A program made the translations under genes and the position numbers. The notes under the pieces were generated by a model that saw nothing but the letters and a program-made list of their open reading frames with translations, was not told the DNA's origin and made no database searches. From a plasmid: a stretch of DNA of 64,000 nucleotides. The stretch lies in NCBI RefSeq assembly GCF_056712565.1, contig NZ_JBWXXM010000004.1; one strand, written 5' to 3'. This document shows, piece after piece, positions 36,213-49,724 of this stretch. The first letter of the stretch is position 1; the number at the start of each line of letters is the position of its first letter.

Positions 36213-36641
36213 TTAGCGGTCAGCAGGCGCTAGATACATCGAATTGATGTGCCGCGCGATAAATGTACCTATTCTATCAAGATAAATTACACCGACGCGG
36301 CAAGCACCCATGACATGAAAAAAGAAACGCCCCATGGGTGTTGATGTGTCAATACTGTCTGTCAGACTACGGAAATTAACACCTTTTTCCCGCAACTCCT
36401 CTATAAGCGTGATAAGGTGTTTCATACTTCTGCCAAGCCTATCCAGCTTCCAGACAACCAGCGTATCTCCTTCTGATAACGTTCTGAGCAGCTTTTTCAA
36501 GCCTGGTCTGGCTGACTTTGTTCCGCTTATTTTATCTTCAAAAATCAGTTCACATCCTGCGCAGTTCAGTGCATTTCTTTGTAAATCTGTGTTTTGGTCA
36601 TTTGTTGACACACGAATGTAGCCAATTTGCATGAAAAACAA
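36213..36641 (-). CDS. cin: Cin/Min-family serine DNA invertase, C-terminally truncated (homology ends after about residue 113 at about nt 36301)
   Basis: MQIGYIRVSTNDQNTDLQRNALNCAGCELIFEDKISGTKSARPGLKKLLRTLSEGDTLVVWKLDRLGRSMKHLITLIEELREKGVNFRSLTDSIDTSTPMGRFFFHVMGA matches the Gin/Hin/Cin catalytic domain; the next 29 residues are unrelated and the HTH domain is absent. Confidence 0.75.
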   Translation of the reverse strand: MFFMQIGYIRVSTNDQNTDLQRNALNCAGCELIFEDKISGTKSARPGLKKLLRTLSEGDTLVVWKLDRLGRSMKHLITLIEELREKGVNFRSLTDSIDTSTPMGRFFFHVMGACRVGVIYLDRIGTFIARHINSMYLAPADR

Positions 36642-36692: not shown

Positions 36693-36717
36693 AAAACGTT
36701 GGTTTGGGGGAAGGCTC
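36693..36717 (+). other. invertase crossover site xs-1 (cix/mix-like), starts cassette tfc-1
   Basis: aaaacgTTggtttgggggaaggctc; core AACGTTGGTTT resembles the Hin/Gin/Cin family core AAACC-NN-GGTTT; 62 bp from the divergent invertase start. Confidence 0.55.
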
Positions 36718-37171
36718 GGCACTGCCCGTTGGTGTACCTGTTCCATGGCCCTCAGCCACACCACCAACGGGGTGGCTGAAATGCAATGGTGCAGCATTTT
36801 CTTCTGAAAAGTACCCAAATCTGGCAAAGGTTTACCCTACTAATAAATTGCCGGATCTACGGGGCGAATTTATTCGCGGCTGGGATGACGGGCGGGGGAT
36901 TGACTCTGGCCGTAATTTATTATCTGCACAGAATGATGCAATTCAGAATATTGTTGGTTCTTTCGGGCGTACTCAGCTTTTTAGAGATGTACTTAGTTCA
37001 GGGCCATTTAGTCAACATGGTCAAGTATTATCTACAGGCCTAAAGGAAACGGAAATTATTGAGGGTTATGGCTCTTATAACTGGACATTCGACGCCTCTC
37101 GCTCAGTTCGTACAGCATCTGAAACCCGCCCCCGTAATATTGCATTTAATTACATCGTAAGGGCGGCATAA
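36704..37171 (+). CDS. silent tail-fibre C-terminal cassette tfc-1 (TTG start, no promoter)
   Basis: Begins (M/L)GEGSALPVGVPVPWPSATPPTGWLKCNGAAFSSEKYPNLAKVYPTNKLPDLRGEFIRGWDDGRG, same as the junction of S, then a unique 80-aa core, ends ETRPRNIAFNYIVRAA. Confidence 0.65.
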   Translation: MGEGSALPVGVPVPWPSATPPTGWLKCNGAAFSSEKYPNLAKVYPTNKLPDLRGEFIRGWDDGRGIDSGRNLLSAQNDAIQNIVGSFGRTQLFRDVLSSGPFSQHGQVLSTGLKETEIIEGYGSYNWTFDASRSVRTASETRPRNIAFNYIVRAA

Positions 37172-37195
37172 AAACGTTGGTTTGGGGGAAGGCTC
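37171..37195 (+). other. crossover site xs-2
   Basis: aaaacgttggtttgggggaaggctc directly after the tfc-1 stop. Confidence 0.55.
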
Positions 37196-37658
37196 AGCAT
37201 TGCCCGTTGGCGTGCCCGTTCCGTGGCCCTTAGAAACACCGCCAACGGGGTGGCTGAAATGTAACGGAGCAGCATTTTCTTCTGAAATGTATCCCAAACT
37301 GGCAAAGGCCTACCCCACCAATAAATTACCGGATTTACGGGGAGAATTTATTCGCGGCTGGGATGATGGGCGCGGGGTGGATGCGGGACGTGCTTTATTG
37401 AGCATTCAGACAGGAATGCTGGAAAAGCACCGACATATTGTTGTAGCCAATGATGGTTACGACACAAAAGATGAATGGGAGCTGGCGACAATTTTCAAAA
37501 AAACATACACACAAGGACGGGGGCTTGATGCCTCAAATACAGGAGGGAATTTGATTCCATCACCGACACTTCATTCTCGAGGGAGTATTGGTAATACTGG
37601 CGGGAGTGAAACCCGTCCACGAAATATCGCATTTAATTACATCGTAAGGGCGGCATAA
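37182..37658 (+). CDS. silent tail-fibre C-terminal cassette tfc-2
   Basis: Same conserved head (PLETPP/SSEMYPKLAKAYPT allele) and tail ETRPRNIAFNYIVRAA, distinct core. Confidence 0.65.
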   Translation: MGEGSALPVGVPVPWPLETPPTGWLKCNGAAFSSEMYPKLAKAYPTNKLPDLRGEFIRGWDDGRGVDAGRALLSIQTGMLEKHRHIVVANDGYDTKDEWELATIFKKTYTQGRGLDASNTGGNLIPSPTLHSRGSIGNTGGSETRPRNIAFNYIVRAA

Positions 37659-37682
37659 AAACGTTGGTTTGGGGGAAGGCTC
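37658..37682 (+). other. crossover site xs-3
   Basis: aaaacgttggtttgggggaaggctc. Confidence 0.55.
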
Positions 37683-38133
37683 TGCACTGCCTGTTGGTGT
37701 GCCCGTTCCGTGGCCCTTAGAAACACCACCAACGGGCTGGCTAAAATGCAATGGTGCAGCATTTTCTTCTGAAATGTATCCCAAACTGGCAAAGGCCTAC
37801 CCCACCAATAAATTACCGGATTTACGCGGTGAGTTTATCCGTGGTTGGGATGATGGGCGAGGTGTGGATGCGGGAAGGGTCATCTTAAGCATACAGGGGT
37901 GGTTACAGGAAGTCATTATCATAATATTCGGTCATGGGACGCGTGGATAACACGGTATTGGTGCCATTAATTGACATGAGGGGGGGATAGTCTGTTGTCG
38001 ACAGATAACGCCGTCAGGCATTTTCAGCGATTAATGGTAAATTTCACCAGTCAACTCTGTAGGTGATGGTATAAATTTTGTTGCTGTCAGGCCGCGAAAT
38101 ATCGCATTTAATTACATCGTAAGGGCGGCATAA
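37669..38133 (+). pseudogene. degenerate duplicate of cassette tfc-4 (frameshifted cassette tfc-3)
   Basis: Near-identical to 38144-38602 at DNA level but with indels (ggttacagg vs ggttaacagg); ORF stops after 93 codons although the terminal RPRNIAFNYIVRAA coding block is present at 38090-38133. Confidence 0.55.
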
Positions 38134-38157
38134 AAACGTTGGTTTGGGGGAAGGCTC
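38133..38157 (+). other. crossover site xs-4
   Basis: aaaacgttggtttgggggaaggctc. Confidence 0.55.
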
Positions 38158-38602
38158 TGCACTGCCTGTTGGTGTGCCCGTTCCGTGGCCCTTAGAAACA
38201 CCACCAACGGGCTGGCTAAAATGCAATGGTGCAGCATTTTCTTCTGAAATGTATCCCAAACTGGCAAAGGCCTACCCCACCAATAAATTACCGGATTTAC
38301 GCGGTGAGTTTATCCGTGGTTGGGATGATGGGCGAGGTGTGGATGCGGGAAGGGTCATCTTAAGCATACAGGGGTGGTTAACAGGAAGTCATTATCATAA
38401 TATTCGGTCATGGGACGCGTGGGATAACACGGTATTGGTGCCAAATGACAGAGGGGGGGATAGTCTGTTGTCGACAGATAACGCCGTCCGGCAAGGAGCG
38501 ATTAATGGTAAATTTACCAGTCAATACAGAACGGAGTTATCTGGGGGGAATGAAACCCGCCCACGTAACATTGCCTTCAATTATATTGTGAGAGCAGCAT
38601 AA
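38144..38602 (+). CDS. silent tail-fibre C-terminal cassette tfc-4, coupled to a tail fibre assembly gene
   Basis: 152-aa cassette; stop overlaps the ATG of the following tfa gene (taATGg). Confidence 0.65.
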   Translation: MGEGSALPVGVPVPWPLETPPTGWLKCNGAAFSSEMYPKLAKAYPTNKLPDLRGEFIRGWDDGRGVDAGRVILSIQGWLTGSHYHNIRSWDAWDNTVLVPNDRGGDSLLSTDNAVRQGAINGKFTSQYRTELSGGNETRPRNIAFNYIVRAA

Positions 38603-39213
38603 TGGATAATGCGATATTAAATAGCGAACTTATAGCCATACAGGCAGGAAACATTATCGTTTATAACTATGATGGTGGTAATCGGGAATATATTTCTGCA
38701 TCAACTGAATATCTTGCTGTTGGCGTTGGTATTCCGGCAAATTCTTGTTTGGATGCTCCAGGCTCACATAAAGCAGGTTATGCGATTCTCCGTTCAGAGG
38801 ATTTAAGTTCATGGGAGTATGTGCCAGATCATCGTGGCGAAACTGTCTATAGCATTGACACTGGGAATCCCGAAGAAATCACGGTGTTGGGTGACTATCC
38901 GGAAAATACAACCACTATCGCCCCGCTAACACCATACGACAAATGGGATGGAGAGAAATGGGTGGTTGATACTGAGGCTCAACATAGTGCAGCTGTAGAG
39001 GCAGCAGAAACAAAACGTCAGTCATTGATTGATACTGCGATGGATTCCATTAGTCTGATTCAGTTGAAATTACGGGCTGGACGGAAGTTGACGCAGGCAG
39101 AAACCACGCAGCTTAACTCCGTGCTAGATTATATAGACGAGCTGAACGCGATGGATTTAACCACGGCACCAGATCTCAACTGGCCTGAAAAACAACTTTC
39201 TACAGCCAGTTGA
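38602..39213 (+). CDS. tail fibre assembly chaperone (Tfa / U-like)
   Basis: 203-aa product; Tfa-like C-terminal region DYIDELNAMD...WPE; translationally coupled to tfc-4, as U follows Sv in Mu/P1. Confidence 0.65.
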   Translation: MDNAILNSELIAIQAGNIIVYNYDGGNREYISASTEYLAVGVGIPANSCLDAPGSHKAGYAILRSEDLSSWEYVPDHRGETVYSIDTGNPEEITVLGDYPENTTTIAPLTPYDKWDGEKWVVDTEAQHSAAVEAAETKRQSLIDTAMDSISLIQLKLRAGRKLTQAETTQLNSVLDYIDELNAMDLTTAPDLNWPEKQLSTAS

Positions 39214-39218
39214 TATAA

Positions 39219-39716
39219 TTAATCCGCCCTCACAATATAATTAAATGCAATATTACGAGGGCGGGTTTCTAAGCCAGCAGTACCTAAATTAGCTACGGAC
39301 TGTTTATATGTTTTAAAAGTTCCATAATTAGGGGCTGGCAATCCTGCATCGCTTGTGTTCCCCCATCTGATAACTCCCGTATTACCACTAGTAGCCCATG
39401 CCTCGTCAAAGTAGAAATTAATTGAGCGGTCAGTTGCTACGGTTGATTTTGACGGTAATCCGTGAGCATGATCCTCCGTTGCATATCCTTGCTCGCTTAA
39501 AATAGAGCGACCAGAGTCAATCCCTCGCCCATCATCCCAGCCACGGATAAACTCACCGCGTAAATCAGGTAATTTTAACGTTGGGTAAACCTTTGCCAGA
39601 TTTGGGTACTTTTCAGAAGAAAATGCTGCACCATTGCATTTCAGCCACCCCGTTGGCGGTGTGGCTGAGGGCCATGGAATAGGTACACCAACGGGCAGCG
39701 CCGAGCCTTCCCCTAA
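39219..39716 (-). CDS. silent tail-fibre C-terminal cassette tfc-5 (no start codon: TTA at the crossover site)
   Basis: Open frame LGEGSALPVGVPIPWPSATPP...ETRPRNIAFNYIVRAD; missing from the ORF track because it begins TTA-GGG instead of TTG-GGG. Confidence 0.55.
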   Translation of the reverse strand, partial: LGEGSALPVGVPIPWPSATPPTGWLKCNGAAFSSEKYPNLAKVYPTLKLPDLRGEFIRGWDDGRGIDSGRSILSEQGYATEDHAHGLPSKSTVATDRSINFYFDEAWATSGNTGVIRWGNTSDAGLPAPNYGTFKTYKQSVANLGTAGLETRPRNIAFNYIVRAD

Positions 39717-39727
39717 ACCAACGTTTT
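39703..39727 (-). other. crossover site xs-5 (TTA variant, like the site in S)
   Basis: Plus strand gagccttcccctaaaccaacgtttt. Confidence 0.55.
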
Positions 39728-40155
39728 CATGCCGCCCTTACGATATAATTAAACGCAATGTTACGAGGACGAATGGTTACATAATTAACCCCATCACCTC
39801 GTGAAGGCCCTGCAAATGAAAAACGGGAAAATCCTGGTTGGTTAGAAACAATTTGGTCATAGTTATTGATTGAATGACCAGACCCAATGTCGAAATTACC
39901 TCCGTAATGAGAAAAACTTGTACCATCCTGCCCTGAAAGCAGGGTACGTCCCGCATCAATCCCGCGCCCATCATCCCAGCCACGGATAAATTCACCGCGT
40001 AAATCCGGTAATTTATTGGTGGGGTAGGCTTTTGCCAGTTTGGGATACATTTCAGAAGAAAATGCTGCACCATTGCATTTTAGCCAGCCCGTTGGTGGTG
40101 TTTCTAAGGGCCACGGAACGGGCACACCAACAGGCAATGCTGAGCCTTCCCCCAA
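39727..40155 (-). CDS. silent tail-fibre C-terminal cassette tfc-6
   Basis: 142-aa; conserved head and tail, unique core. Confidence 0.65.
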   Translation of the reverse strand: MGEGSALPVGVPVPWPLETPPTGWLKCNGAAFSSEMYPKLAKAYPTNKLPDLRGEFIRGWDDGRGIDAGRTLLSGQDGTSFSHYGGNFDIGSGHSINNYDQIVSNQPGFSRFSFAGPSRGDGVNYVTIRPRNIAFNYIVRAA

Positions 40156-40166
40156 ACCAACGTTTT
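40142..40166 (-). other. crossover site xs-6
   Basis: Plus strand gagccttcccccaaaccaacgtttt. Confidence 0.55.
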
Positions 40167-40669
40167 TATGCCGCCCTTACGATGTAATTAAATGCAACGT
40201 TGCGAGGGCGAGTTTCTGTACCTACATTTCCACTAATTTCACCATAACGTTTAACACTACGAGAGCTAATAGCTCGTAGTGAGGAAGGCACCTTATGACC
40301 GGGTTCGTCCGTTTTAACTATTCCCCCGTCACCGTATGTAGCTAGTATTCCTGGATTTACGCCTTCCCGTGCACTTCCTGCGGCGAGTCCGTCCCCTGTC
40401 CATAATTCCATATAGTGTGCATGGTCCAAAATTGTGTGTGGCTGCCAATTAAGCAAAGCGCGGCCAGCATCCACCCCGCGCCCATCATCCCAGCCACGGA
40501 TAAATTCACCGCGTAAATCAGGTAATTTTAACGTTGGGTAAACCTTTGCCAGATTTGGGTACTTTTCAGAAGAAAATGCTGCACCATTGCATTTCAGCCA
40601 CCCCGTTGGCGGTGTGGCTGAGGGCCATGGAATAGGTACACCAACGGGCAGCGCCGAGCCTTCCCCTAA
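40166..40669 (-). CDS. silent tail-fibre C-terminal cassette tfc-7 (no start codon; ORF track shows only its GTG-started distal 102 aa)
   Basis: Continuous frame LGEGSALPVGVPIPWPSATPP...GRGVDAGRALLNWQ...ETRPRNVAFNYIVRAA. Confidence 0.55.
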   Translation of the reverse strand, partial: LGEGSALPVGVPIPWPSATPPTGWLKCNGAAFSSEKYPNLAKVYPTLKLPDLRGEFIRGWDDGRGVDAGRALLNWQPHTILDHAHYMELWTGDGLAAGSAREGVNPGILATYGDGGIVKTDEPGHKVPSSLRAISSRSVKRYGEISGNVGTETRPRNVAFNYIVRAA

Positions 40670-40680
40670 ACCAACGTTTT
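40656..40680 (-). other. crossover site xs-7 (TTA variant)
   Basis: Plus strand gagccttcccctaaaccaacgtttt. Confidence 0.55.
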
Positions 40681-41141
40681 TATGCCGCCCTTACGATATA
40701 ATTAAAGGCAATATTACGAGGACGGTTTTCATTAGCTGTTGGCACGACACGAGAGGCGTCGAATCCAAGGTCATCGGTTTTGCCTATATCAGTTGTGTTA
40801 TTCGGCATTCTCGCAGATCGTGTTCCTGCATCATAAAAAGCCCCTCTGATTGCATCAAAAGACATGCCAATCCCGCCATCTGCGAACCCCTCAATATTTC
40901 TTATTGCATCCCCCTGTGAAGATAATAATTGTCGCCCGGCATCCACACCACGTCCGTCATCCCAGCCACGAATAAATTCACCGCGTAAATCCGGCAATTT
41001 ATTAGTAGGGTAAACCTTTGCCAGATTTGGGTACTTTTCAGAAGAAAATGCTGCTCCGTTACATTTCAGCCACCCCGTTGGCGGAGTGGCTGAGGGCCAC
41101 GGAACAGGTACGCCAACAGGCAATGCTGAGCCTTCCCCCAA
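40680..41141 (-). CDS. silent tail-fibre C-terminal cassette tfc-8
   Basis: 153-aa; conserved head and tail, unique core. Confidence 0.65.
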   Translation of the reverse strand: MGEGSALPVGVPVPWPSATPPTGWLKCNGAAFSSEKYPNLAKVYPTNKLPDLRGEFIRGWDDGRGVDAGRQLLSSQGDAIRNIEGFADGGIGMSFDAIRGAFYDAGTRSARMPNNTTDIGKTDDLGFDASRVVPTANENRPRNIAFNYIVRAA

Positions 41142-41152
41142 ACCAACGTTTT
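41128..41152 (-). other. crossover site xs-8
   Basis: Plus strand gagccttcccccaaaccaacgtttt. Confidence 0.55.
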
Positions 41153-41505
41153 TATGTGGCCCTTACAATGTAATTAAAAGCAACGTTGCGGGGGCGCATT
41201 GATATCCATGCCCCGGTAAAATTATCCTCTGCCGTCCTTTGAGTGCCTGTTATGGAGTTATCTGATGATGCTGGAACATAATCGCTATTATCTCCTGCTT
41301 TAGGATTAGCAGGGTTTCCAACAGTTATAACAGAATCAGCAGCGATACCTACTTTGACATTAGTAGTCAGATCGACACCGTAATAATCCTGCAAAGCTGT
41401 ACGAATAAATGTTGCAGTCTGACCACTTAGCAATGAACGCCCTGTATCAATCCCTCTCGAATCATCCCAACCACGGATAAACTCACCGCGTAAATCAGGT
41501 AATTT
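41152..41505 (-). CDS. distal part of the tail-fibre cassette now in expression position (tfc-9), in frame with S but separated from it by a TAA at 41506-41508
   Basis: Frame continues from the S stop: *KLPDLRGEFIRGWDDSRGIDTGRSLLSGQTATFIR...SMRPRNVAFNYIVRAT. Confidence 0.55.
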   Translation of the reverse strand, partial: KLPDLRGEFIRGWDDSRGIDTGRSLLSGQTATFIRTALQDYYGVDLTTNVKVGIAADSVITVGNPANPKAGDNSDYVPASSDNSITGTQRTAEDNFTGAWISMRPRNVAFNYIVRAT

Positions 41506-43155
41506 TTACGTGGGGTAAACCTTTGCCAGATTTGGGTACTTTTCAGAAGAAAATGCTGCTCCGTTACATTTCAGCCACCCCGTTGGTGGTGTGGCGGAGG
41601 GCCATGGAACAGGTACACCAACGGGCAGCGCCGAGCCTTCCCCTAAACCAAGGTAATCAAGAACGCTATGAATACTGGTCTTACCAAGAATGGCGCGTCC
41701 AACACTTGTCAATGCAGTTAACGCGGCACGATCAACACCTGTGAAATAAGGGAGTTTATCTGCTGCTGTAGCTAGTGCCGCTAGAGCAGTGAGCGTAGCG
41801 TCTGCCGCTTGCTTTCCATTAGCCAAATCATATGCAGCCTTGACAGCTTTCGGTGTGGCGGCCAGCACTTCAGACGTGCTGTTAGTGGCACTACTGAGCT
41901 GAGTGATGCCTTTCGCTGTCAATGAAGCTGTTGGCACACCAGTGATCTGATTCCAGGGATGTGTATGACTGGATGGTGCCTTTCCGGCTGCTAGATCGTA
42001 TGCAGCTTTAACCGCTTTTGGAGTTGCAGCTAATGTTTCAGAAGTGCTGTTGGTGTCGCTACTGAGCTGAACTATCCCTTTTTGTGTCGTGGTTGCATCC
42101 TGGGCTGTATACTTCCCGTTAGCCAAATCATATGCAGCCTTGACAGCTTTCGGTGTGGCGGCCAGCACTTCGGACGTACTGTTAGTGGCACTACTGAGCT
42201 GAGTGATGCCTTTCGCTGTCAATGAAGCTGTTGGCACACCAGTGATCTGATTCCAGGGATGTGTATGACTGGATGGTGCCTTTCCGGCTGCTAGATCGTA
42301 TGCAGCTTTAACCGCTTTTGGAGTTGCAGCTAATCTGTTGGTGTCGCTACTGAGCTGAACTATCCCTTTTTGTGTCGTGGTTGCATCCTGGGCTGTATAC
42401 TTCCCGTTAGCCAAATCATATGCAGCCTTGACAGCTTTCGGTGTGGCGGCCAGCACTTCGGACGTACTGTTAGTGGCACTACTGAGCTGAACTAATCCCT
42501 TTTGCGTTGTGCTTGCATCCTGCGCCGTATACTTGCTTTTCGCCAGATCGTAGGCTTTTTTAACTGCCAGCGAACTCGCAGCAACATCACTTCTGGTACT
42601 GGTTACAGAGTCTGAAATATCAATGCCGATCGTGCGGTTGATACGCTCGGATGTATCAATCATCTCTTGAGTAATGGTAGATACGCCAGCAGGGATATTC
42701 ACCGTACAAACCAGCAGTTCCCCATCACCTAACTGATATGAATCGGTATAGGTTCTGGCAACAAATTCAGCTGCATGAATATGTGACGCGGTATTAACCT
42801 GATAGGTATCTTCTCCAAGAAGGTATCTTCCCTTCAGCACAATTGCATATTTCTTGCCTGCGTTAAGTGCAAGAGAGATATCCTTACGATGCTGAATAGT
42901 TACCTGGTAGAATTCACCAATATCCACTGACGCCGCGCCAGCGGTTTTATCTCCATCCACTGAGGTGATTAACAGGTTCATCCCACCGCCAGGCTTAGGC
43001 AAGAAACCAGCATAAAATCCCGGGTCAACAATTCCCCTGAATTTTCGGTTTAGAGCGGCTGACAGATATGGTTCGTGGTATTGCACATCAGCCACCAGAG
43101 CCAACGACTCGGGTGATGGGTAAGTAACCGATGTAACAACTGTAACGTCATTCAT
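41506..43155 (-). CDS. tail fibre protein S (constant N-terminal part plus start of the expressed cassette), ends at an in-frame ochre codon inside the conserved cassette head
   Basis: Start MNDVTVV behind AAGGA; internal repeats of the phage tail-fibre repeat motif (SSATNSTSEVLAATPKAVKAAYDLA); ends ...LGEGSALPVGVPVPWPSATPPTGWLKCNGAAFSSEKYPNLAKVYPT*. Confidence 0.7.
   Translation of the reverse strand: MNDVTVVTSVTYPSPESLALVADVQYHEPYLSAALNRKFRGIVDPGFYAGFLPKPGGGMNLLITSVDGDKTAGAASVDIGEFYQVTIQHRKDISLALNAGKKYAIVLKGRYLLGEDTYQVNTASHIHAAEFVARTYTDSYQLGDGELLVCTVNIPAGVSTITQEMIDTSERINRTIGIDISDSVTSTRSDVAASSLAVKKAYDLAKSKYTAQDASTTQKGLVQLSSATNSTSEVLAATPKAVKAAYDLANGKYTAQDATTTQKGIVQLSSDTNRLAATPKAVKAAYDLAAGKAPSSHTHPWNQITGVPTASLTAKGITQLSSATNSTSEVLAATPKAVKAAYDLANGKYTAQDATTTQKGIVQLSSDTNSTSETLAATPKAVKAAYDLAAGKAPSSHTHPWNQITGVPTASLTAKGITQLSSATNSTSEVLAATPKAVKAAYDLANGKQAADATLTALAALATAADKLPYFTGVDRAALTALTSVGRAILGKTSIHSVLDYLGLGEGSALPVGVPVPWPSATPPTGWLKCNGAAFSSEKYPNLAKVYPT
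41633..41658 (-). other. crossover site xs-9 inside S (constant/variable junction)
   Basis: Plus strand gagccttcccctaaaccaaggtaatc; core ACCTTGGTTTAGG, reverse-complement-symmetric around TT like Hin/Gin/Cin-family sites. Confidence 0.55.
41815..42530. repeat. about 300-bp tandem direct repeats (2.4 copies) inside S
   Basis: 41821-42120 and 42121-42405 nearly identical (second copy lacks 15 bp near 42336), third partial copy to about 42530. Confidence 0.7.
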
Positions 43156-43166
43156 CAAGCATATCC

Positions 43167-43601
43167 TTATGCTGTAGTCGAGTTTATGGCCATAACTGCG
43201 GTATATGTTTTGCCCACATACAGCGAGTCTTCCTGGACACAAATAATGGCGATTGGCTTATTCTCGTTATCCAGAACAACCAGAGTGTTGAATGGGTAGT
43301 TTTTCCCTTCCTGCAACTGACTTTGATCAAGGTCCATTCGGACAGTAATTATCCCGCCTGAGTAGGTTGGGACGAGGTTGATGGTGCAAAATTGACTGGT
43401 CAGTTCTGCCAGATCGAAAGCCTTTGGCAGTTCTCCAATCTCATAAGTGCCATCTCCTTTCTTAGTAACCAGTGAACTGGTACCGAAAACGGCCTTGCTG
43501 ATTAAAAATCGAGAGCCTTTGTTAATGGACGATTCAGCGCGCCGCTGATAGTAATAGTCCAACAACTGACTCTTATAGAGGTTTGTTGAGACGTCAGACA
43601 T
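43167..43601 (-). CDS. tail fibre-associated protein (R-position), 144 aa
   Basis: Immediately upstream of S on the same strand; synteny. Confidence 0.45.
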   Translation of the reverse strand: MSDVSTNLYKSQLLDYYYQRRAESSINKGSRFLISKAVFGTSSLVTKKGDGTYEIGELPKAFDLAELTSQFCTINLVPTYSGGIITVRMDLDQSQLQEGKNYPFNTLVVLDNENKPIAIICVQEDSLYVGKTYTAVMAINSTTA

Positions 43602-43679
43602 GATTTTCCCTAATCAATGTTGTGAAGCCTCATTGTAAGATAAGTAACTTGTCACCCCGCCCTGCGGACGGGGTGATTG

Positions 43680-44519
43680 TCACGCATCGCTATCCAACAG
43701 CAAATCATCTGCGCGGGTGCGATCAAACGTAGGCGTTGCTTTCACAATAGTGCCGCCCGGCGTTGCAGTGATCGGGGCGTTAATCGACGTAACTTCAGTA
43801 AGCGAAGTTGTATCCGAAGTTTCAAACCAGCAGAATGCTTTTTCGGTATCAGAAATCTCATTCAAAGTGATCATGTCGGCCTGTTCATTTACAACAACCG
43901 ACAAATAGAGCGTAAGCCCATCAAACACTATATGCAGTGGCAGTAGAGGCTTTACGAACTGATTAAACTTTCTGAGAATTTCTTCTGTAATTGCGGACTG
44001 ATCTATCGTTCCAGTAATACCCATTGTCCGGGCCAGGTCGTTTATGGGAATACTGATCATTCCTCTGGAAGTCAGAAACATCTCGCCGAATGTGCCGCCG
44101 GTGGTTTCCAGTGTGCTTTCTGGAATCAGGACCGTGCCATAGGGATGACGTTCAAAGTCCACCGGAGCATATATGGGATCCCATAAAACCGATATACCGT
44201 TAAATTCGCGATAAATTGTCTGGTTTATAGGGCGTTCAGTACCCTTAAAATGGATCTCATCAAACCGCTGTTGTAACAACATCGGAACGGAAGATGAATT
44301 CGACGTTCTGATAGTAAAAAACTGGCCAAGTTCATTTGTCCTAGTCTCCAGATCCTCCTTGCTCATGGAGAAAATAGACTTCCGGTTGGTAATTCGCTCC
44401 AACCATGGGTCAACAAAGGTGTCCATCATTGACTGAACCAAATCAGCCAATGATTTATAAAGTAATGACTTTTGCTTAGCTGATGTAAGCCGGTTATTAA
44501 ACCAGGAACGCTGCATCAC
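43680..44519 (-). CDS. baseplate/tail structural protein (gene 16-position), 279 aa
   Basis: ORF track; synteny within tail gene block. Confidence 0.4.
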   Translation of the reverse strand: MMQRSWFNNRLTSAKQKSLLYKSLADLVQSMMDTFVDPWLERITNRKSIFSMSKEDLETRTNELGQFFTIRTSNSSSVPMLLQQRFDEIHFKGTERPINQTIYREFNGISVLWDPIYAPVDFERHPYGTVLIPESTLETTGGTFGEMFLTSRGMISIPINDLARTMGITGTIDQSAITEEILRKFNQFVKPLLPLHIVFDGLTLYLSVVVNEQADMITLNEISDTEKAFCWFETSDTTSLTEVTSINAPITATPGGTIVKATPTFDRTRADDLLLDSDA

Positions 44520-45949
44520 TCCTCCTCATACGAAATATTAAAGGTGGAGTTTTCTGTATCCAGATAAACGAAATCGTAAAAGCCGTTGGACTCATTCCAC
44601 TCGACAAATTCCAGATAAAAGTCGCGGAAATAACCCAGCGTTTCGATAAATGCCCAAGCGTCTTTTTTCTTGATTAGGATGTACTTGCCGACACGGTTCG
44701 GATCAAAGAAAGTTGAGTCACGCCCAAATTTTGTTTCCAGTGCCGACTTCAGCTCATCAGTCACGTTCTCAATGGTCAGGCTTGCCGATATCCGCCCAGT
44801 GATGGTGATCTTAAAGGGGAGTTTTCTGACCTCTTTATACGAGAATTTCTTGTTCAACTCATTCGGCACCTTCTTAAAGGCAGCCAGGATCATTTCTTCA
44901 AGCTCTGACTGGCTTTTGTTTGGATGCCATCCTGAAATAAATATCTTATTGATATTCCGAACATTATAAGCACCATCTAATTTCTCTTGCTGGCCTTCGC
45001 CCCATGCCTTTACCCAGGACAGTCCCGGGATGTTACGCACCAGAAAATACGTATAGTCCCCGCCCCATACGACCTGATCATCATAGGCAAGGTAATATTG
45101 TGCACGGTTACGTGTGATCTCCGTTGTTTCGGCATCGGTACCTGCGGTTATAGGTGTCGTTGTCTTAACTGAAATCAAATTAGCTAAATTAGCCGCAGAA
45201 TCGACAGGCGTCAGGTTTTGGCCAGCAACCAGGGTTATATCGCCGTTGGTGCACCATACCTTAAGCGTAATGGTCGAGCCTTCTGGCGGTATTTGCCCAA
45301 TTAGCCCATCACCGAATCGAACCCCCAACTGCTCGGATGGTTTATAAAACTCAACGTAGACCTGGCTTTTACTACCGGCTAACCGGAACATAGTGCTGGA
45401 AGACCACTGCGTGGTCTTACCATCGGTCGTCACGAATACTTCCAGCTTATAGCAGACAGCAGTGAGAGCCTTTGATAACACGACTTCCAGAAATTCTTTG
45501 GCTGCCGTAACGGTATATGTCACCTCCTGGATTTCCAACTGTGCCACTTCTACCGTACCGGTGCCGTCAACCAACCTGCATACATCCATAGTCATGTAAG
45601 GATACTGGTCGTCAGATATTAAAGGCATGTTTTTGGGGATTACCGCTGGGGCATCTTCACTTGTGGCGGTGATCTCAATCATCCCCGATGACGGTGTTGG
45701 CTTGGTACCAACGTAACTATTCGTTTCTGCCGCTGCCAGGATAGAAGAACGCCGCGTCGCGGTCGATATAAAGCCTTCAGCCAGCGCCGCATCGGCATAC
45801 TGAAAGCACCTGTAGACAATCTGGGTAATAAACAATGTCAGCATCGAGACAAATTGAGAGCCGACAAACTTCGACCAGAATGAATCTTTCTCGACAAGCT
45901 CTTCAAACTCTGCACGAATACTGTCTTTAGTAGGTGTTGTTTTACTCAT
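44516..45949 (-). CDS. baseplate protein (bplA-position), 477 aa
   Basis: ORF track; 4-nt overlap coupling with neighbours. Confidence 0.4.
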   Translation of the reverse strand: MSKTTPTKDSIRAEFEELVEKDSFWSKFVGSQFVSMLTLFITQIVYRCFQYADAALAEGFISTATRRSSILAAAETNSYVGTKPTPSSGMIEITATSEDAPAVIPKNMPLISDDQYPYMTMDVCRLVDGTGTVEVAQLEIQEVTYTVTAAKEFLEVVLSKALTAVCYKLEVFVTTDGKTTQWSSSTMFRLAGSKSQVYVEFYKPSEQLGVRFGDGLIGQIPPEGSTITLKVWCTNGDITLVAGQNLTPVDSAANLANLISVKTTTPITAGTDAETTEITRNRAQYYLAYDDQVVWGGDYTYFLVRNIPGLSWVKAWGEGQQEKLDGAYNVRNINKIFISGWHPNKSQSELEEMILAAFKKVPNELNKKFSYKEVRKLPFKITITGRISASLTIENVTDELKSALETKFGRDSTFFDPNRVGKYILIKKKDAWAFIETLGYFRDFYLEFVEWNESNGFYDFVYLDTENSTFNISYEEE

Positions 45950-46305
45950 AGCACCACGTCCTGTGTGATAGTTATATCCCTGATACGAATGGATATTTTC
46001 AACTTATCAAAAGCATCTCCCTCGGCTACTGACAAGCCAGAAATCGGTATGTCGGGTAAATCTACCGTCAGTTTTTGCAAAAGCATTGCCTCAACCGCAA
46101 TTTGAACATGCGACAAGTTGGTCGGTTCGTGTTTAAACTGCGGTAAAACATTGCCCCATGACGGATCTCCGTATACCTCACCCTGATAAGTGTTTAGCCA
46201 CTCATATAAACGAGCGCCCCAGGCCTCCTCCTGGGACTCATACGTTTTTACGCCGGATAACTCCAGCGTCAGCAAAGGATCAATTTCGTTATTGTTGGCC
46301 ATCAA
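45946..46305 (-). CDS. putative morphogenetic protein (pmgA-position), 119 aa
   Basis: ORF track; coupled to sit. Confidence 0.35.
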   Translation of the reverse strand: MMANNNEIDPLLTLELSGVKTYESQEEAWGARLYEWLNTYQGEVYGDPSWGNVLPQFKHEPTNLSHVQIAVEAMLLQKLTVDLPDIPISGLSVAEGDAFDKLKISIRIRDITITQDVVL

Positions 46306-49300
46306 TCAACTCTCGCGTAGTCATTCATCAACGGATCATCAATTGACAGTGGCACCGTGCGCATAACGCCCGGTTGAGGCGTGCTGACCTTTACGACAGT
46401 TCCCTGGCCTTTCGCCGAGTCTTTAGTGTGCTCTTCAATCCTGGCAAGCAATGAGGTCATCTGCGCAAACAGCCGCTTCGTTTCACCATCAAGTGAAACG
46501 GTATTATCAGCCAACTGCATTGTCGGCTTGGCACCGGAGCCGCCAAGGTCACTAATAACCTGTCCGTCTATCTGCATACGACCGGTTGGTTGCTGCAAAT
46601 CGTTGGCGGCAGTCGTCACCTGGGACGTGGAGGCTGGTTCAGGCGCATTATTTTTCCGCATCCCCGGCGAGTTGCGGAGTTTATCAAATAGTCCATCAAT
46701 CCCCATTTGTGCGCCGAGTTGGTCAAAGTAACTTGAGTTGCTGGCCACCGGACGCGCCTCTTCAACTGGCATCTGAGTATCAACATACACATTGCCAGCT
46801 GCTGTTGCGGTCCCCTTCCCTCGTGCACGTTCTTCGAGCGTTCCCTGAACGACTTCCCGACGCATACCCCGGCCATTCATGAATTTGTTGACCAGATCGT
46901 TAACGCCAACAGCATTGCCAATTTTGTCTACCAGACCGCCTTTCTCAAACGGGCTATCACCAGGGGTAAACGCCAGGCCAGTAGACTGATCGATAACAGC
47001 GTTATCAGGCAGTGGTCCCCTCACTCCATATTGCGCCCCACCCTGTGCTCCTGCTCCAGGTGTATAGATTTCACCACCTAAATAGCGAGCACGATGAGTA
47101 TTGACCTTGATCGCGTACTCACGGTTTTCTTTCGATAAGTCACCTGTGCCTTTTTTCCACTTATTAATAGTGCCAAACCCAGCGTTATATGCAGTGATGG
47201 CCTCGTTTAAGTCTCCATTGGCTTGCTTCAGATACTTGCTCATGAGAAGAGCCGCAGCTTCTGCCGATTTTTCCGGATTAAAAGAATCTTCCCGGGATAA
47301 TCCAGTTTCCTCACGAGCAACGCGCGTAAACTGGAACATCCCGAGTGCGCCACCACTTAACTTTCCATCTGGTGATCTTGTAAGCGGAGACTTTGCGTTA
47401 GGATCCCCTCCTGATTCAGTTGCAGCAATCGCGTAAAGAGTGCCTTCAGGAAGACCATATTTATTCTCTAGTTCAGCAAAATACGGAGCTAACTTATCGA
47501 GATTTGCCTTACCTTCAGCGCCAAGGCTTCCGACTTTTACATCTAAGTTGCCATTATTGTAGGTATCAGCAGCTTTCTGAATGTCATTCCCAGTGCCGGT
47601 GGTATTACGCGACGATGATGACGAGCTATTTTGTCCAATAGCTGAATCAATTTTCCGCACCGCGCTATTGCCCATTTCTACGGCATTTGCATTGATAATC
47701 TGATTGGCAGTTTCTTTAACTGTTTTATTGCTATCTTTCGCCGTGTCCAGTGCCGCATTTATCACGCGGGTAGCAATATTAGTCTGTTTAGCATCGGATT
47801 CAGTTTTAGAATCAGATGTCTCCTGGTGGCTATTAACCGGAGCTTTTAACTCTGGAGTGATTTCTTTTGCATTAGCCTCGCCGATCGGATTGGGTATTTT
47901 TGATACAATCATTGCCGCAGGGGTATTTTTAACGGCATCAACCGCTGCATCTAATGCTTTACCGGGTAAATTTTTAACCCCATCCCAAATATTACCAGCC
48001 GCCTCTTTAATGTGTTTCCCTGGGTTCTTAATGAAGTCAATTGCACTATCAATTGCATCACTGAAAACCTGTTTCAGGTTATCGACAGTAAAGAAGTCTT
48101 TGATGGCATCCAGCTTTTCAAGCAACTTATTAGATGTATCGCTAAACCATGCTGAAACAGCATCACCAATCTTTGCTGTGTAATCATCGAACTTGGTAGA
48201 AATGGTGTCGCCAAGGTTAGAAATATATGTTTCTAAGTTGGTAACCCCGCTATCAATGGCCTGGGCAATACTTTCCGTCGAAAATGATTGCAACATATTG
48301 CCGATATCCTCAAATCCAAGTGATTTGAGAACATCACCAATAGCACTGCTAATACCAGATACCAGTCCCCCCAAATCAAGAACATTGGCTAACGTATAAG
48401 CGGCTTTTTGCTGGAATGATGGATCTTGTCCTGATTTAAGCCCAAACGCTCGACGTTGCGCTTCTGTATCATTCCAACCGGTTACCGCATCATAAATACC
48501 TCCAGCCACTGTGCCGACTAGGGGAATTGCGCGTAACGCCCCTTTACCAACTGCCTTTAATCCAAGTTTACCTGCTGCCCGGGCAGCCAAATCTCCGCCT
48601 TCATGGGCGAGAGTCTTCTTGCCCCCACCGCGTAGCATTCCTACGAGTCTCTTTGCCCCCAGAGCGCCAAAAGCGAGTGCTCCAGCTTTTTTCAGCATGC
48701 CACGCCCCATTAACAACGACGCGACGCCACCGGCCCCCTTCCCTAACAGGCTAAATAGTTTAGACAGCAAGCCGCCCTTCTTTTTCCCGGTGTTTTTGGC
48801 TATCTGATCAAGGGCGCTGAGAATCTTGTCATTGCCCTCTTTAATTTCGCTGGTCTGCTCCTGAAGTTCCTGAACCGTCCGTTTTTGGGTGTTAACCTGA
48901 ACGACATCGGCACTATTTTGCGATTTACGCCTAAAAAAACCTTTTCTACGGCTGTTATCGTCATTGCCACGAATCACATCGGCAATAGACTTTCTGGCAC
49001 CATTAAGCGATCCACCAACTTCTTTTGATATCCCGCCAAGCTCCTTCCCTGCTGCCCACAATGGACCAGCAACAGCATAACCTAACGCATCGACGGCACG
49101 AGTCTCTGAAGGGTTACCTATGCCTTCAGCTACTTTTGACAGTTTTTTTAATAAACCTGATTCAGCATTTAGACGCTCATCATCCTCTTTGCGCCTGGCC
49201 TTTTCAGCACGTTCAGCACGGGCATCTTCCGCTGCGGCCTTACTCCCTGACTTTCCAATAAAACGACCACGCGCATCGCGTTGGTTTTGGCTTTTTTGCG

Positions 49301-49724
49301 CACCGCCTTTTTGACCGAACATTTCGCGAGCGTGTTCGGCTGCTTCGGTCCGTTGCGCCTTTACATCTTCTGTTATAGCCTTCTTGCGTCGTTTTTTACC
49401 CTTTCGCGTAGTTGATTTGGCCTGCGGTTCCTGTAGAGCAACATCCTCCTGAACTACACGAGAAACGTCCCCTAAATTAAGCCGTTTCATTGCCTCAACA
49501 ATAGGGTCCACTGATGGCGCATTGGCCACAAAGTCTGGCCGGGAATTTTCGATTGTGCGATTTAATGCCGACACACTGCGAGAGACAGGATCAACAGTTG
49601 CAACGCGTCCCCCTTTCAAATCTTCAACAGCTTCCCGGATACCTGCAAGCTCTTCCAGCTCTTTTGCGCTGGCGGTTTCAACCGTCCTTATCACATCGTC
49701 AATGTTGGCGTTTTTTCTTTCCAT
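46302..49724 (-). CDS. sit: Sit, tape-measure-like structural injection transglycosylase
   Basis: 1140-aa product (length of P1 Sit); soluble lytic transglycosylase motif AIAATESGGDPNAKSPLTRSPDGKLSGGALGMFQF; Ala/Gly/Lys-rich repetitive N-terminal half. Confidence 0.75.
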   Translation of the reverse strand: MERKNANIDDVIRTVETASAKELEELAGIREAVEDLKGGRVATVDPVSRSVSALNRTIENSRPDFVANAPSVDPIVEAMKRLNLGDVSRVVQEDVALQEPQAKSTTRKGKKRRKKAITEDVKAQRTEAAEHAREMFGQKGGAQKSQNQRDARGRFIGKSGSKAAAEDARAERAEKARRKEDDERLNAESGLLKKLSKVAEGIGNPSETRAVDALGYAVAGPLWAAGKELGGISKEVGGSLNGARKSIADVIRGNDDNSRRKGFFRRKSQNSADVVQVNTQKRTVQELQEQTSEIKEGNDKILSALDQIAKNTGKKKGGLLSKLFSLLGKGAGGVASLLMGRGMLKKAGALAFGALGAKRLVGMLRGGGKKTLAHEGGDLAARAAGKLGLKAVGKGALRAIPLVGTVAGGIYDAVTGWNDTEAQRRAFGLKSGQDPSFQQKAAYTLANVLDLGGLVSGISSAIGDVLKSLGFEDIGNMLQSFSTESIAQAIDSGVTNLETYISNLGDTISTKFDDYTAKIGDAVSAWFSDTSNKLLEKLDAIKDFFTVDNLKQVFSDAIDSAIDFIKNPGKHIKEAAGNIWDGVKNLPGKALDAAVDAVKNTPAAMIVSKIPNPIGEANAKEITPELKAPVNSHQETSDSKTESDAKQTNIATRVINAALDTAKDSNKTVKETANQIINANAVEMGNSAVRKIDSAIGQNSSSSSSRNTTGTGNDIQKAADTYNNGNLDVKVGSLGAEGKANLDKLAPYFAELENKYGLPEGTLYAIAATESGGDPNAKSPLTRSPDGKLSGGALGMFQFTRVAREETGLSREDSFNPEKSAEAAALLMSKYLKQANGDLNEAITAYNAGFGTINKWKKGTGDLSKENREYAIKVNTHRARYLGGEIYTPGAGAQGGAQYGVRGPLPDNAVIDQSTGLAFTPGDSPFEKGGLVDKIGNAVGVNDLVNKFMNGRGMRREVVQGTLEERARGKGTATAAGNVYVDTQMPVEEARPVASNSSYFDQLGAQMGIDGLFDKLRNSPGMRKNNAPEPASTSQVTTAANDLQQPTGRMQIDGQVISDLGGSGAKPTMQLADNTVSLDGETKRLFAQMTSLLARIEEHTKDSAKGQGTVVKVSTPQPGVMRTVPLSIDDPLMNDYARVD

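Follow-up and report, generated by a model that had tools for sequence, protein, structure and literature searches.

A tandem array of putative shaft modules in a P1-like tail-fibre gene S

The tail-fibre gene S of the plasmid analysed here contains tandem copies of a ~300-bp sequence. The window, which is the whole stretch of DNA that was analysed (64,000 nucleotides), was utilized to ask whether these copies form a genuine coding array, how copies might be gained and lost, and whether their number has consequences for the fibre.

Gene S and the structure of its repeat array

As currently joined, S occupies 41506–43155 on the minus strand (549 codons + TAA; ORF list, P1/P7 similarity and Pfam) and starts at an ATG that is common to all relatives (MNDVTVVTSV...). 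Gene R, encoding a tail-fibre structural or assembly protein, lies immediately upstream (43167–43601, minus strand; ORF, phrog_2032 at E 1e-84 and P1 annotation). Baseplate and tape-measure genes also lie upstream, with Sit (1,140 aa) at 46302–49724, and the gene order around S is the same in relatives. R and the 5' part of S are 95.9–96.6% identical to P1/P7 at the nucleotide level over 42467–43300. S has a P1 gpS-like N-terminus, the R-S gene order and a tip joined at a crossover site, as in the P1/p15B type. Judged by its sequence, the element in the window is a P1-like (Punavirus, p15B-type) phage-plasmid, with the array located in the constant part of its S gene.

A Pfam search for Phage_fiber_2, suggested as a check by an earlier sequence-only reading of this DNA, matched S with PF03406 over six stretches at 332.6 bits (E 1.2e-101), the curated gathering cut-off being 22 bits. 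S also carries a Collar domain (PF07484) and matches the PHROG tail-fibre families phrog_454 and phrog_2631. The Phage_fiber_2 sequence is made up of several ~40-aa repeats, comprising the five cores of the array described below and one degenerate repeat, SSLAVKKAYDLA (42541–42576, minus strand; motif coordinates), in the N-terminal part. This N-terminal P1-type part (aa 1–208; 42532–43155, minus strand; P1/P7 match) is unique sequence ahead of the array. The constant part has a second unique stretch, the post-repeat segment (QAADATLTALAALATAADKLPYFTG...LDYLGLG; 41641–41811, minus strand), which served as the right-hand anchor for array length in relatives.

TRF returned a single array at 41812–42490 (period 300, 2.3 copies, 95% matches, score 1230), one of only two arrays of this kind in the window, and a repeat search agreed on the register, the copies being spaced 300 and 288 bp apart. 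Units were aligned on the coding (minus) strand of S. In coding order the alignment gives a 132-bp half unit (42400–42531), a 288-bp unit (unit 1, 42112–42399) and a 300-bp unit (unit 2, 41812–42111), all on the minus strand and all in frame. The near-identical ~300-bp copies that the sequence-only reading had described are thus confirmed by both TRF and alignment, and its third partial copy is present as the half unit. The half unit (module type m1, 44 aa) contains one Phage_fiber_2 repeat, YTAQDASTTQKGLVQLSSATNSTSEVLAATPKAVKAAYDLANGK, and is invariant across the four loci compared. Unit 1 is of module type m25 (96 aa) and unit 2 of the commonest type, m2 (100 aa). Each full unit consists of two Phage_fiber_2 repeats with a SSHTHPWNQITGVP linker between them and contains SHTHPW; the linkers, which carry the HxH motif, lie at 42232–42273 in unit 1 and 41932–41973 in unit 2 (minus strand; motif coordinates). 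Five LAATPKAVKAAYDLA cores and two SSHTHPWNQITGVP linkers are encoded in total, as had been read from the sequence.

The 300-bp and 288-bp units differ by four substitutions and one gap, and the last 91 bp of the half unit are identical to the 288-bp unit. A perfect 156-bp tract is common to the units, which are 98–100% identical. Unit 2 has the signature AAT GGA, which marks the terminal unit in all arrays compared. The gap corresponds to 12 bp, CACTTCTGAAAC on the coding strand, missing in frame from the first Phage_fiber_2 repeat of unit 1 with a junction between 42334 and 42335; AAC AGC ACT TCT GAA ACA TTA becomes AAC AGA TTA and four codons are lost net. The earlier claim that the second copy is shortened at STSET holds, but STSET is replaced by R and the loss is 12 bp rather than 15; the second copy therefore spans 288 bp and not the 285 bp implied by the limits first proposed (42121–42405). 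A probe for the deletion junction matched nothing in ecoli_genomes, plasmids, phages or IMG/VR. Direct-repeat microhomology was considered as the origin of the deletion and gave no simple fit when the flanking sequence was read by eye. A terminator-like hairpin at 42001–42028 (non-coding strand, inside the repeat) was dismissed because shuffled sequence gives an equal number of such hits.

Copy number in related elements

Relatives were sampled with a flank-only query, utilizing the unique flanks of the array against 5,426 complete E. coli genomes, ~495 of which carry the S locus. In the best 60 of these ~495 records the inter-flank DNA measures 131 + 300a + 132b bp with a = 0–6. Four records have no unit, nine have one, seven have two, 15 have three, ten have four, 13 have five and two have six. 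The comparison among relatives that the sequence-only reading had proposed thus returned quantised variation (0–6 units in 60 E. coli records), and PLSDB plasmids, sampled across their spread, showed the same quantisation. Where flank identity is 99.9%, four records (loci L004–L006 among them) have 1, 2, 4 and 2 units and, as judged by sequence comparison, show quantised variation to be very fast, with 1, 2 and 4 units occurring at that flank identity.

The fetched loci contain 1, 2, 4 and 5 units. Among 97 full-length homologues the number of HxH modules is 2 (n = 2, window included), 3 (n = 44), 4 (n = 49) or 5 (n = 2), in 36 distinct module architectures, and the parsed homologous proteins have 2–6 units, with 7 in P0121. 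Overall, S of close relatives has 0–7 copies of the 100-aa module; the window allele, a half unit and two units, is short, most relatives having 3–5. TRF gave 5.3 copies for phage vB_EcoM-673R5 and mixed 168/300-bp periods for phage 813R1. Inserts of a few relatives deviate by 1–2 bp and locus L001 has 299-bp units; part of the between-record variation could be assembly error. The module is matched by 2,789 cluster representatives, single proteins having as many as 16 stretches, and the motif [SN]HxHxWxxIxG is present in 35 of 149 diverse representatives.

The S array is VNTR-like, with an in-frame unit whose length is divisible by 3 and a copy number that differs among close relatives. A contingency locus in the strict sense would, unlike a repeat that is simply polymorphic, show a high rate of clonal switching together with a phenotypic consequence.

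Origin and meaning of the length variation

In the parsed homologues, variant modules adjoin copies of themselves (m8 m8 m8; m19 x3; m4 x3), two units can be duplicated as a block (m12 m2 m12 m2; m2 m10 m2 m10) and register variants of 44 aa and 56 aa exist. The AAT GGA signature is fixed in the terminal unit and the internal units vary in number. Self-adjacent variant units are what would be expected from unequal homologous exchange, a reading that these arrangements support. The proposal in the sequence-only reading that the repeats may expand or contract is likewise supported, by a copy number of 0–7 units among relatives and by such recombination footprints.

A real in-frame array of shaft modules in S, with a copy number changed by recombination or slippage, is therefore our main reading, to which a probability of roughly 85% is assigned. 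Each unit of 300 bp (100 aa) encodes two Phage_fiber_2 repeats separated by a APSSHTHPWNQITGVPTASLTA linker. The array lies between the N-terminal domain of P1 type, by which the fibre is attached to the baseplate, and the crossover site for invertible receptor-binding tips, and from this position the units would be shaft modules of a presumably trimeric fibre. Whole units would be gained or lost in frame by misaligned homologous recombination or replication slippage because identity between units is ~98–100% across stretches as long as 156 bp, and out-of-register exchange between the two repeat types of a unit would add or remove pieces of 132 bp or 168 bp. The outcome would be a population of S alleles with 0–7 modules. 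Since the unit is a multiple of 3, in-frame lengths arise automatically and are no evidence of selection.

Each module is expected to lengthen the shaft by a fixed amount, and fibre length may in turn affect adsorption. A conserved His-x-His is present in each full unit of S. In the fibre tip of T4 gp37, HxH motifs bind metal on the axis through six histidines from three chains; by analogy, the HxH of the S linker is a putative ligand of a metal ion on the threefold axis. A PDB sequence search with the HxH linker gave only chance antibody matches (E ~0.8), and a search with the whole constant part of S matched one Phage_fiber_2 repeat of Mu gpS only. An AlphaFold2 monomer in which one module was modelled with the half unit and the post-repeat segment came out all-helical at too low a confidence to be usable (pLDDT 40.7, pTM 0.25).

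The array may be real and polymorphic and its module number nevertheless without effect on adsorption or host range. Such neutral slippage is a reading of what the array does and not of what it is, and so fits with the main account. Units from 0 to 6 all occur at appreciable frequency with no dominant class (best 60 of ~495 records), elements whose flanks agree at 99.9% have different copy numbers, and in-frame change is automatic for a 300-bp unit. Nothing directly opposes neutrality: conservation of the module and its HxHxWxxITGxP linker across very diverse fibres indicates that the module itself is under constraint and is silent on the number of modules. Neutrality of module number is accordingly given somewhat less than an even chance. 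It is rather unlikely that module number acts as a rapidly mutable length dial, with unequal exchange continually producing fibres that differ in reach and selection fitting the reach of the fibre to the thickness of O-antigen or capsule; if it did, it would provide a second, quantitative axis of host range beside qualitative Min-type tip switching.

That the two full units are an assembly artefact, the true array being longer (3–5 units) and its near-identical 300-bp copies collapsed to two, is improbable. Units that are 98–100% identical with a perfect 156-bp tract would be prone to collapse, which is conceivable here since most relatives have 3–5 units, and the arrays of some deposited relatives include signs of sequence error (the 299-bp units and inserts off by 1–2 bp). 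However, the full units are distinguishable by four substitutions and the 12-bp deletion, and their order is sensible, AAT GGA being terminal as it is in all relatives. A consensus unit would be a likelier product of collapse than an in-frame deletion that is private to one copy, and alleles of two units are known from four complete assemblies that are independent of each other (O55:H7 USDA5905 among them). The sequence is not error-prone in general, since other long ORFs of the window, such as that of Sit (1,140 aa), are uninterrupted.

Downstream of the array, a crossover (cix/mix-like) site inside S joins the variable tip cassettes (41635–41663, plus strand; site pattern search). Nine such sites in both orientations were located at 36697–41653 (9 matches vs 0 expected), and at least nine tip cassettes (GEGSALPVGVPVPWP...RPRNIAFNYIVRAA) are present on both strands. 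Programmed change of copy number, by a Min/Cin-type invertase at sites inside the repeats or by a diversity-generating system, is extremely improbable: the array adjoins this multi-site inversion region, but none of the nine crossover sites lies within 41812–42531, the units are direct repeats on which productive action of a Din-family invertase is not expected, arrays differ in length by entire homologous units that bear no signature of a site, and the invertase gene of the window is truncated.

Recombination or slippage between the modules is retained as the probable source of the length variation, in a tail-fibre locus that looks decayed from its sequence. The tip cassette now fused to S (41152–41640, minus strand; comparison with related cassettes) encodes the collar domain and is interrupted by an in-frame TAA at 41506–41508, where related cassettes have TTA (Leu); at this site the window reads AATTTTTACGT vs AATTTTAACGT, and P0012/P0013 read PTLKLPDLRGEFIRGWDDSRG... 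The invertase gene is present and truncated, a 248-bp deletion relative to p1506-2 removing ~80 C-terminal codons, and its ORF diverges past ...FFFHVMGA. No adjacent intact Din-family (Cin/Min) invertase gene was found in the window, and the invertase-deletion junction was not found in ecoli_genomes. Taken together with the short allele and the unmatched in-frame deletion, the nonsense codon and the truncation of the invertase gene point to a non-working fibre system, which in this element is probably defective and drifting.

Repeats that vary in number are commonplace in the tail-fibre genes of phages and well known there; that repeated motifs make such genes plastic is a long-established principle. 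P1-like phage-plasmids are present in ~9% of complete E. coli genomes and the length of S from short reads is unreliable for assembly and typing. S length differs between near-identical elements and could therefore serve as a fine-scale marker. For engineering of P1 tail fibres for DNA delivery, it is relevant that the shaft tolerates 0–7 modules in nature.

Comparison with known systems

The tail-fibre duplications of T4-type phages, which are said to have been described by Tetart et al. 1996/1998, reportedly affect His boxes in the receptor-binding tip of gp37 and expand host range. They resemble the array of the window in being short in-frame duplications via conserved repeated motifs, HxH included. 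They are located in the tip and alter fibre properties, whereas the repeats in the window are in the constant part, the putative shaft. Phage Mu gpS (PDB 5YVQ, 9KI1, 8JU3) contains one Phage_fiber_2 repeat, KKGLVQLTSATDSPSETLAATAKAVKIAMDNA, that is like those of the window (E 1.5e-7), and its fibre is of a type likewise switched by a Din-family invertase. Only this single repeat of Mu was matched by sequence, with no tandem 100-aa module in the match and no HxH linker detected.

The P1-related IncY plasmid p15B (GenBank X62121), reportedly studied by Sandmeier et al. 1990–1992, is said to have an S-type gene with many tips, a Din-family invertase and a Min region with six crossover sites. Multiple alternative tip cassettes at an S-type gene are common to p15B and the window, which has at least nine; the window differs in its nine crossover sites, against the six reported for p15B, and in its truncated invertase gene. 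The P1 record is annotated as 96% identical to p15B in the 5' region of R/S.

The constant part (Sc) of P1 gpS (GenBank AF234172 / M81956) is annotated with tandem "repeated elements" a0, a1, b1 and b2. P1 and the window share the gene, the R-S-invertible-tips order and ~96% nucleotide identity, which runs through R and ~690 bp into S. Element a1 is 132 bp, the size of one Phage_fiber_2 unit in the window, and occupies the same place in Sc. Homology stops within the first half unit at ~42467; beyond this point P1 has the 222-bp b1/b2 elements, which are absent from the central region of S in the window, and the window has 300-bp HxH modules there. P1 also has a single invertible C segment where the window has many cassettes. 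TRF returned none of the a/b elements of P1 at a score >= 40, so they are too diverged for direct comparison. On the sequence comparison, the central region of S is of the p15B-like type and not of the P1 type.

The full-text literature search found no paper on copy-number variation of these S modules. Genes for p15B-like tail fibres and invertases in P1-like plasmids are described in PMC6906374 (Venturini 2019), where repeats are unmentioned, and PF03406 is among the Pfam repeat families without known structure that were modelled by the authors of PMC8078820.

Also close are the S proteins of P1-like phage-plasmids of E. coli and Salmonella (e.g. pUSDA5905_1, pEH09-18-41_2 and p1506-2; phages vB_EcoM-673R5 and 813R1), with flanks that are 99–99.9% identical to those of the window. 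The 12-bp deletion is found in none of them and, unlike in the window, their tip cassette and invertase gene are mostly intact. They share the half unit, the 100-aa modules and the post-repeat segment of the window, and carry 0–7 modules where the window has 2.

Structure of the array in the tail-fibre gene S

According to Tandem Repeats Finder (TRF), the 64-kb window contains just two tandem arrays. One of them spans 41812-42490, with a score of 1230, a period of 300, 2.3 copies and 95% matches. A repeat search agreed on the register: its spacings are 300 and 288 bp, and 42047-42202 matches 42335-42490 perfectly over 156 nt. The array lies on the minus strand within a 549-codon open reading frame (41506-43155, N-terminus MNDVTVVTSV) and consists, in coding order, of a 132-bp half unit (42400-42531, -), a 288-bp unit (42112-42399, -) and a 300-bp unit (41812-42111, -). 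The half unit is the third, partial copy described in the sequence-only reading, and the tandem repeat seen there is real: four substitutions and a single gap set the 288-bp and 300-bp units apart. Missing from the shorter unit are 12 bp (CACTTCTGAAAC, junction between 42334 and 42335), not the 15 bp originally stated; this converts N-STSET-L to N-R-L, a net loss of four codons.

The gene is S. Phages P1, P7, RCS47 and SJ46 match nucleotides 42467-43300 at 95.9-96.6% identity through R and the 5' portion of their S genes, the protein strongly matches PHROG tail-fibre families, and the upstream ORF is the R protein. A Sit-like protein of 1,140 aa is also encoded upstream of S. Many RefSeq records name the baseplate gene that lies upstream of R (44516-45949, 477 aa) 'bleomycin hydrolase', apparently a misannotation passed from record to record; newer records call it 'baseplate J/gp47 family protein'.

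Each full unit encodes, in order, YTAQDATTTQKGIVQLSSDTNSTSETLAATPKAVKAAYDLAAGK, APSSHTHPWNQITGVPTASLTA and KGITQLSSATNSTSEVLAATPKAVKAAYDLANGK, that is, two Phage_fiber_2 repeats and a joining linker with HxH, in agreement with the paired motifs and linker first described. The Pfam search proposed as a check matched PF03406 (Phage_fiber_2) to S in six stretches (E 1.2e-101), followed by a Collar domain (PF07484) at residues 513-545. The module type is widespread, matching 2,789 cluster representatives with up to 16 stretches per protein, and the linker motif [SN]HxHxWxxIxG is conserved among diverse fibres. Giant proteins of 2,400-3,400 aa contain 10-16 related repeats. The same 100-aa modules were also found in chromosomal prophage fibres, and in P0057 they follow a different, non-P1 N-terminal domain (MGADKTNNIM...). 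The module has evidently been exchanged between unrelated fibre genes (P0057, P0066 and P0117 from the S constant-part search; P0145, P0166 and P0168 from the module search).

A PDB sequence search returned only one related Phage_fiber_2 repeat, in Mu gpS, and nothing matching the HxH linker; the AlphaFold monomer (pLDDT 40.7) was too low in confidence to use. In the T4 gp37 tip a metal ion is bound by HxH, and the motif of the module may by analogy do likewise. Each module would lengthen the fibre, and module number would be expected to affect shaft length.

Downstream of the array a unique segment (41641-41811, -) runs on into a crossover site within S (41635-41663), one of nine GCCTTCCCCNAAACCAANG crossover-like sites at 36697-41663, against none expected by chance. 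Four are in one orientation and five in the opposite; between the sites lie at least nine alternative S tip cassettes (GEGSALPVGVPVPWP...RPRNIAFNYIVRAA), in both orientations, and the region contains a tail-fibre assembly gene (38602-39213, +). The array thus belongs to the constant shaft part of S, with the baseplate-proximal domain on one side and the switchable receptor-binding tips on the other. A second tandem duplication, at 37620-38524, comprises 1.9 copies of a tip cassette with a period of 475 bp and 97% identity. Compared with the intact copy (38144-38602), the first one (ORF 37669-37950) has a frameshift after ...SIQGWL.

Module number among relatives

Thousands of near-identical tail-fibre proteins, encoded on ~95-kb E. 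coli plasmids, matched the constant part of S, and the best 120 of them were parsed. The architecture is a half unit, then n 100-aa modules, then sometimes an extra 44-aa unit. Modules were counted in the 97 sequences with both constant-part ends (96 homologues and the S of the window): n was 2 in two (the window being one), 3 in 44, 4 in 49 and 5 in two, with 36 distinct architectures, in a list biased towards long arrays because it was ranked by bit score. One cluster representative has seven modules.

Of 5,426 complete E. coli genomes, 495 proved to have the locus in an unbiased query of unique flanks only (41650-41811 joined to 42531-45500). The inter-flank distance in the best 60 records was quantised as 131 + 300a + 132b bp, where a is the number of full units; a was 0 in 4 records, 1 in 9, 2 in 7, 3 in 15, 4 in 10, 5 in 13 and 6 in 2. 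Copy number therefore differs among relatives, as had been predicted. Identical length steps were obtained in a spread sample of PLSDB plasmids, and direct counting gave one unit in p1506-2, two in pUSDA5905_1 and four in pEH09-18-41_2. TRF gave 5.3 copies in phage vB_EcoM-673R5 and mixed 168-bp and 300-bp periods in phage 813R1. Several units in these two phage loci (L001 5403-6990 and L002 5109-6244, respectively) are 299 bp rather than 300 bp, and S is split into several 'tail protein (Fragment)' CDSs in both records, which suggests single-base sequencing errors within the arrays.

Gain and loss of units

Unit counts of 1, 2, 4 and 2 occur in four records whose flanks are 99.9% identical, so unit number changes faster than ~1 substitution per kb accrues. 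Across nine full units of four elements only 5 of 300 columns are variable; AAT GGA is always in the last unit and AAC GGG in internal units, and arrays therefore differ by internal units. Variant module types adjoin their own copies (m8 m8 m8; m19 and m4 three times each), two-unit blocks are duplicated (m12 m2 m12 m2; m2 m10 m2 m10), and 44-aa and 56-aa pieces occur at out-of-register recombination between the two repeat types of a unit. Such patterns would be expected if long direct repeats of near-identical sequence gained and lost units by slippage or unequal homologous exchange. Together with the quantised copy number they support the expansion and contraction by recombination originally proposed. 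Programmed, invertase-driven change of unit number is unlikely because no crossover site lies within the array. A more speculative reading, of low probability, is that the number of modules acts as a length dial under adaptation to the surface layers of the host.

The window allele and known systems

The two units of the window are at the short end of the observed range, and two-unit alleles occur in four other complete assemblies. A 60-bp probe across the 12-bp deletion junction had no match in 5,426 E. coli genomes, 72,556 plasmids, 50,697 phage records or IMG/VR. In the expressed tip cassette, codon 41506-41508 (-) is TAA instead of the TTA (Leu, ...KVYPT-L-KLPDLRGEF...) of related and paralogous cassettes, a single-base change beyond which the frame is open to 41152; the expressed fibre would therefore be without its receptor-binding tip. 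The cassette fused to S also lacks three codons (YAT) found in relatives. A Cin/Min-type invertase gene (36213-36632, -) is truncated by a 248-bp deletion relative to p1506-2 (deletion point ~36302), losing ~80 C-terminal codons, and runs into unrelated sequence past ...FFFHVMGA. The lost part presumably includes the DNA-binding helix-turn-helix, by comparison with Cin, and this junction is absent from all other complete E. coli genomes. Without another invertase acting in trans, the multi-cassette region can probably no longer invert. Since large ORFs elsewhere in the window are intact, sequencing noise is a less likely source of these lesions than real mutation; read most simply, this copy of the fibre system is defective and drifting.

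No paper describing the series of 0-7 module copies was found in the literature searched, although tail-fibre mosaicism, as already understood, predicts such a series. Hundreds of deposited plasmids carry the same 300-bp modules under the annotation tail fibre protein. The inversion region is organised as the p15B/Min type, whereas P1 has a single C segment; six crossover sites are reported for p15B, fewer than the nine here. The copy-number-variable array in S is a feature of known kind. At the equivalent position in Sc, tandem "repeated elements" are annotated in the P1 reference record (a0, the 132-bp a1 and the 222-bp b1/b2), which also mentions the relationship to p15B, so repeats in this part of S have been recognised since the gene was first sequenced.
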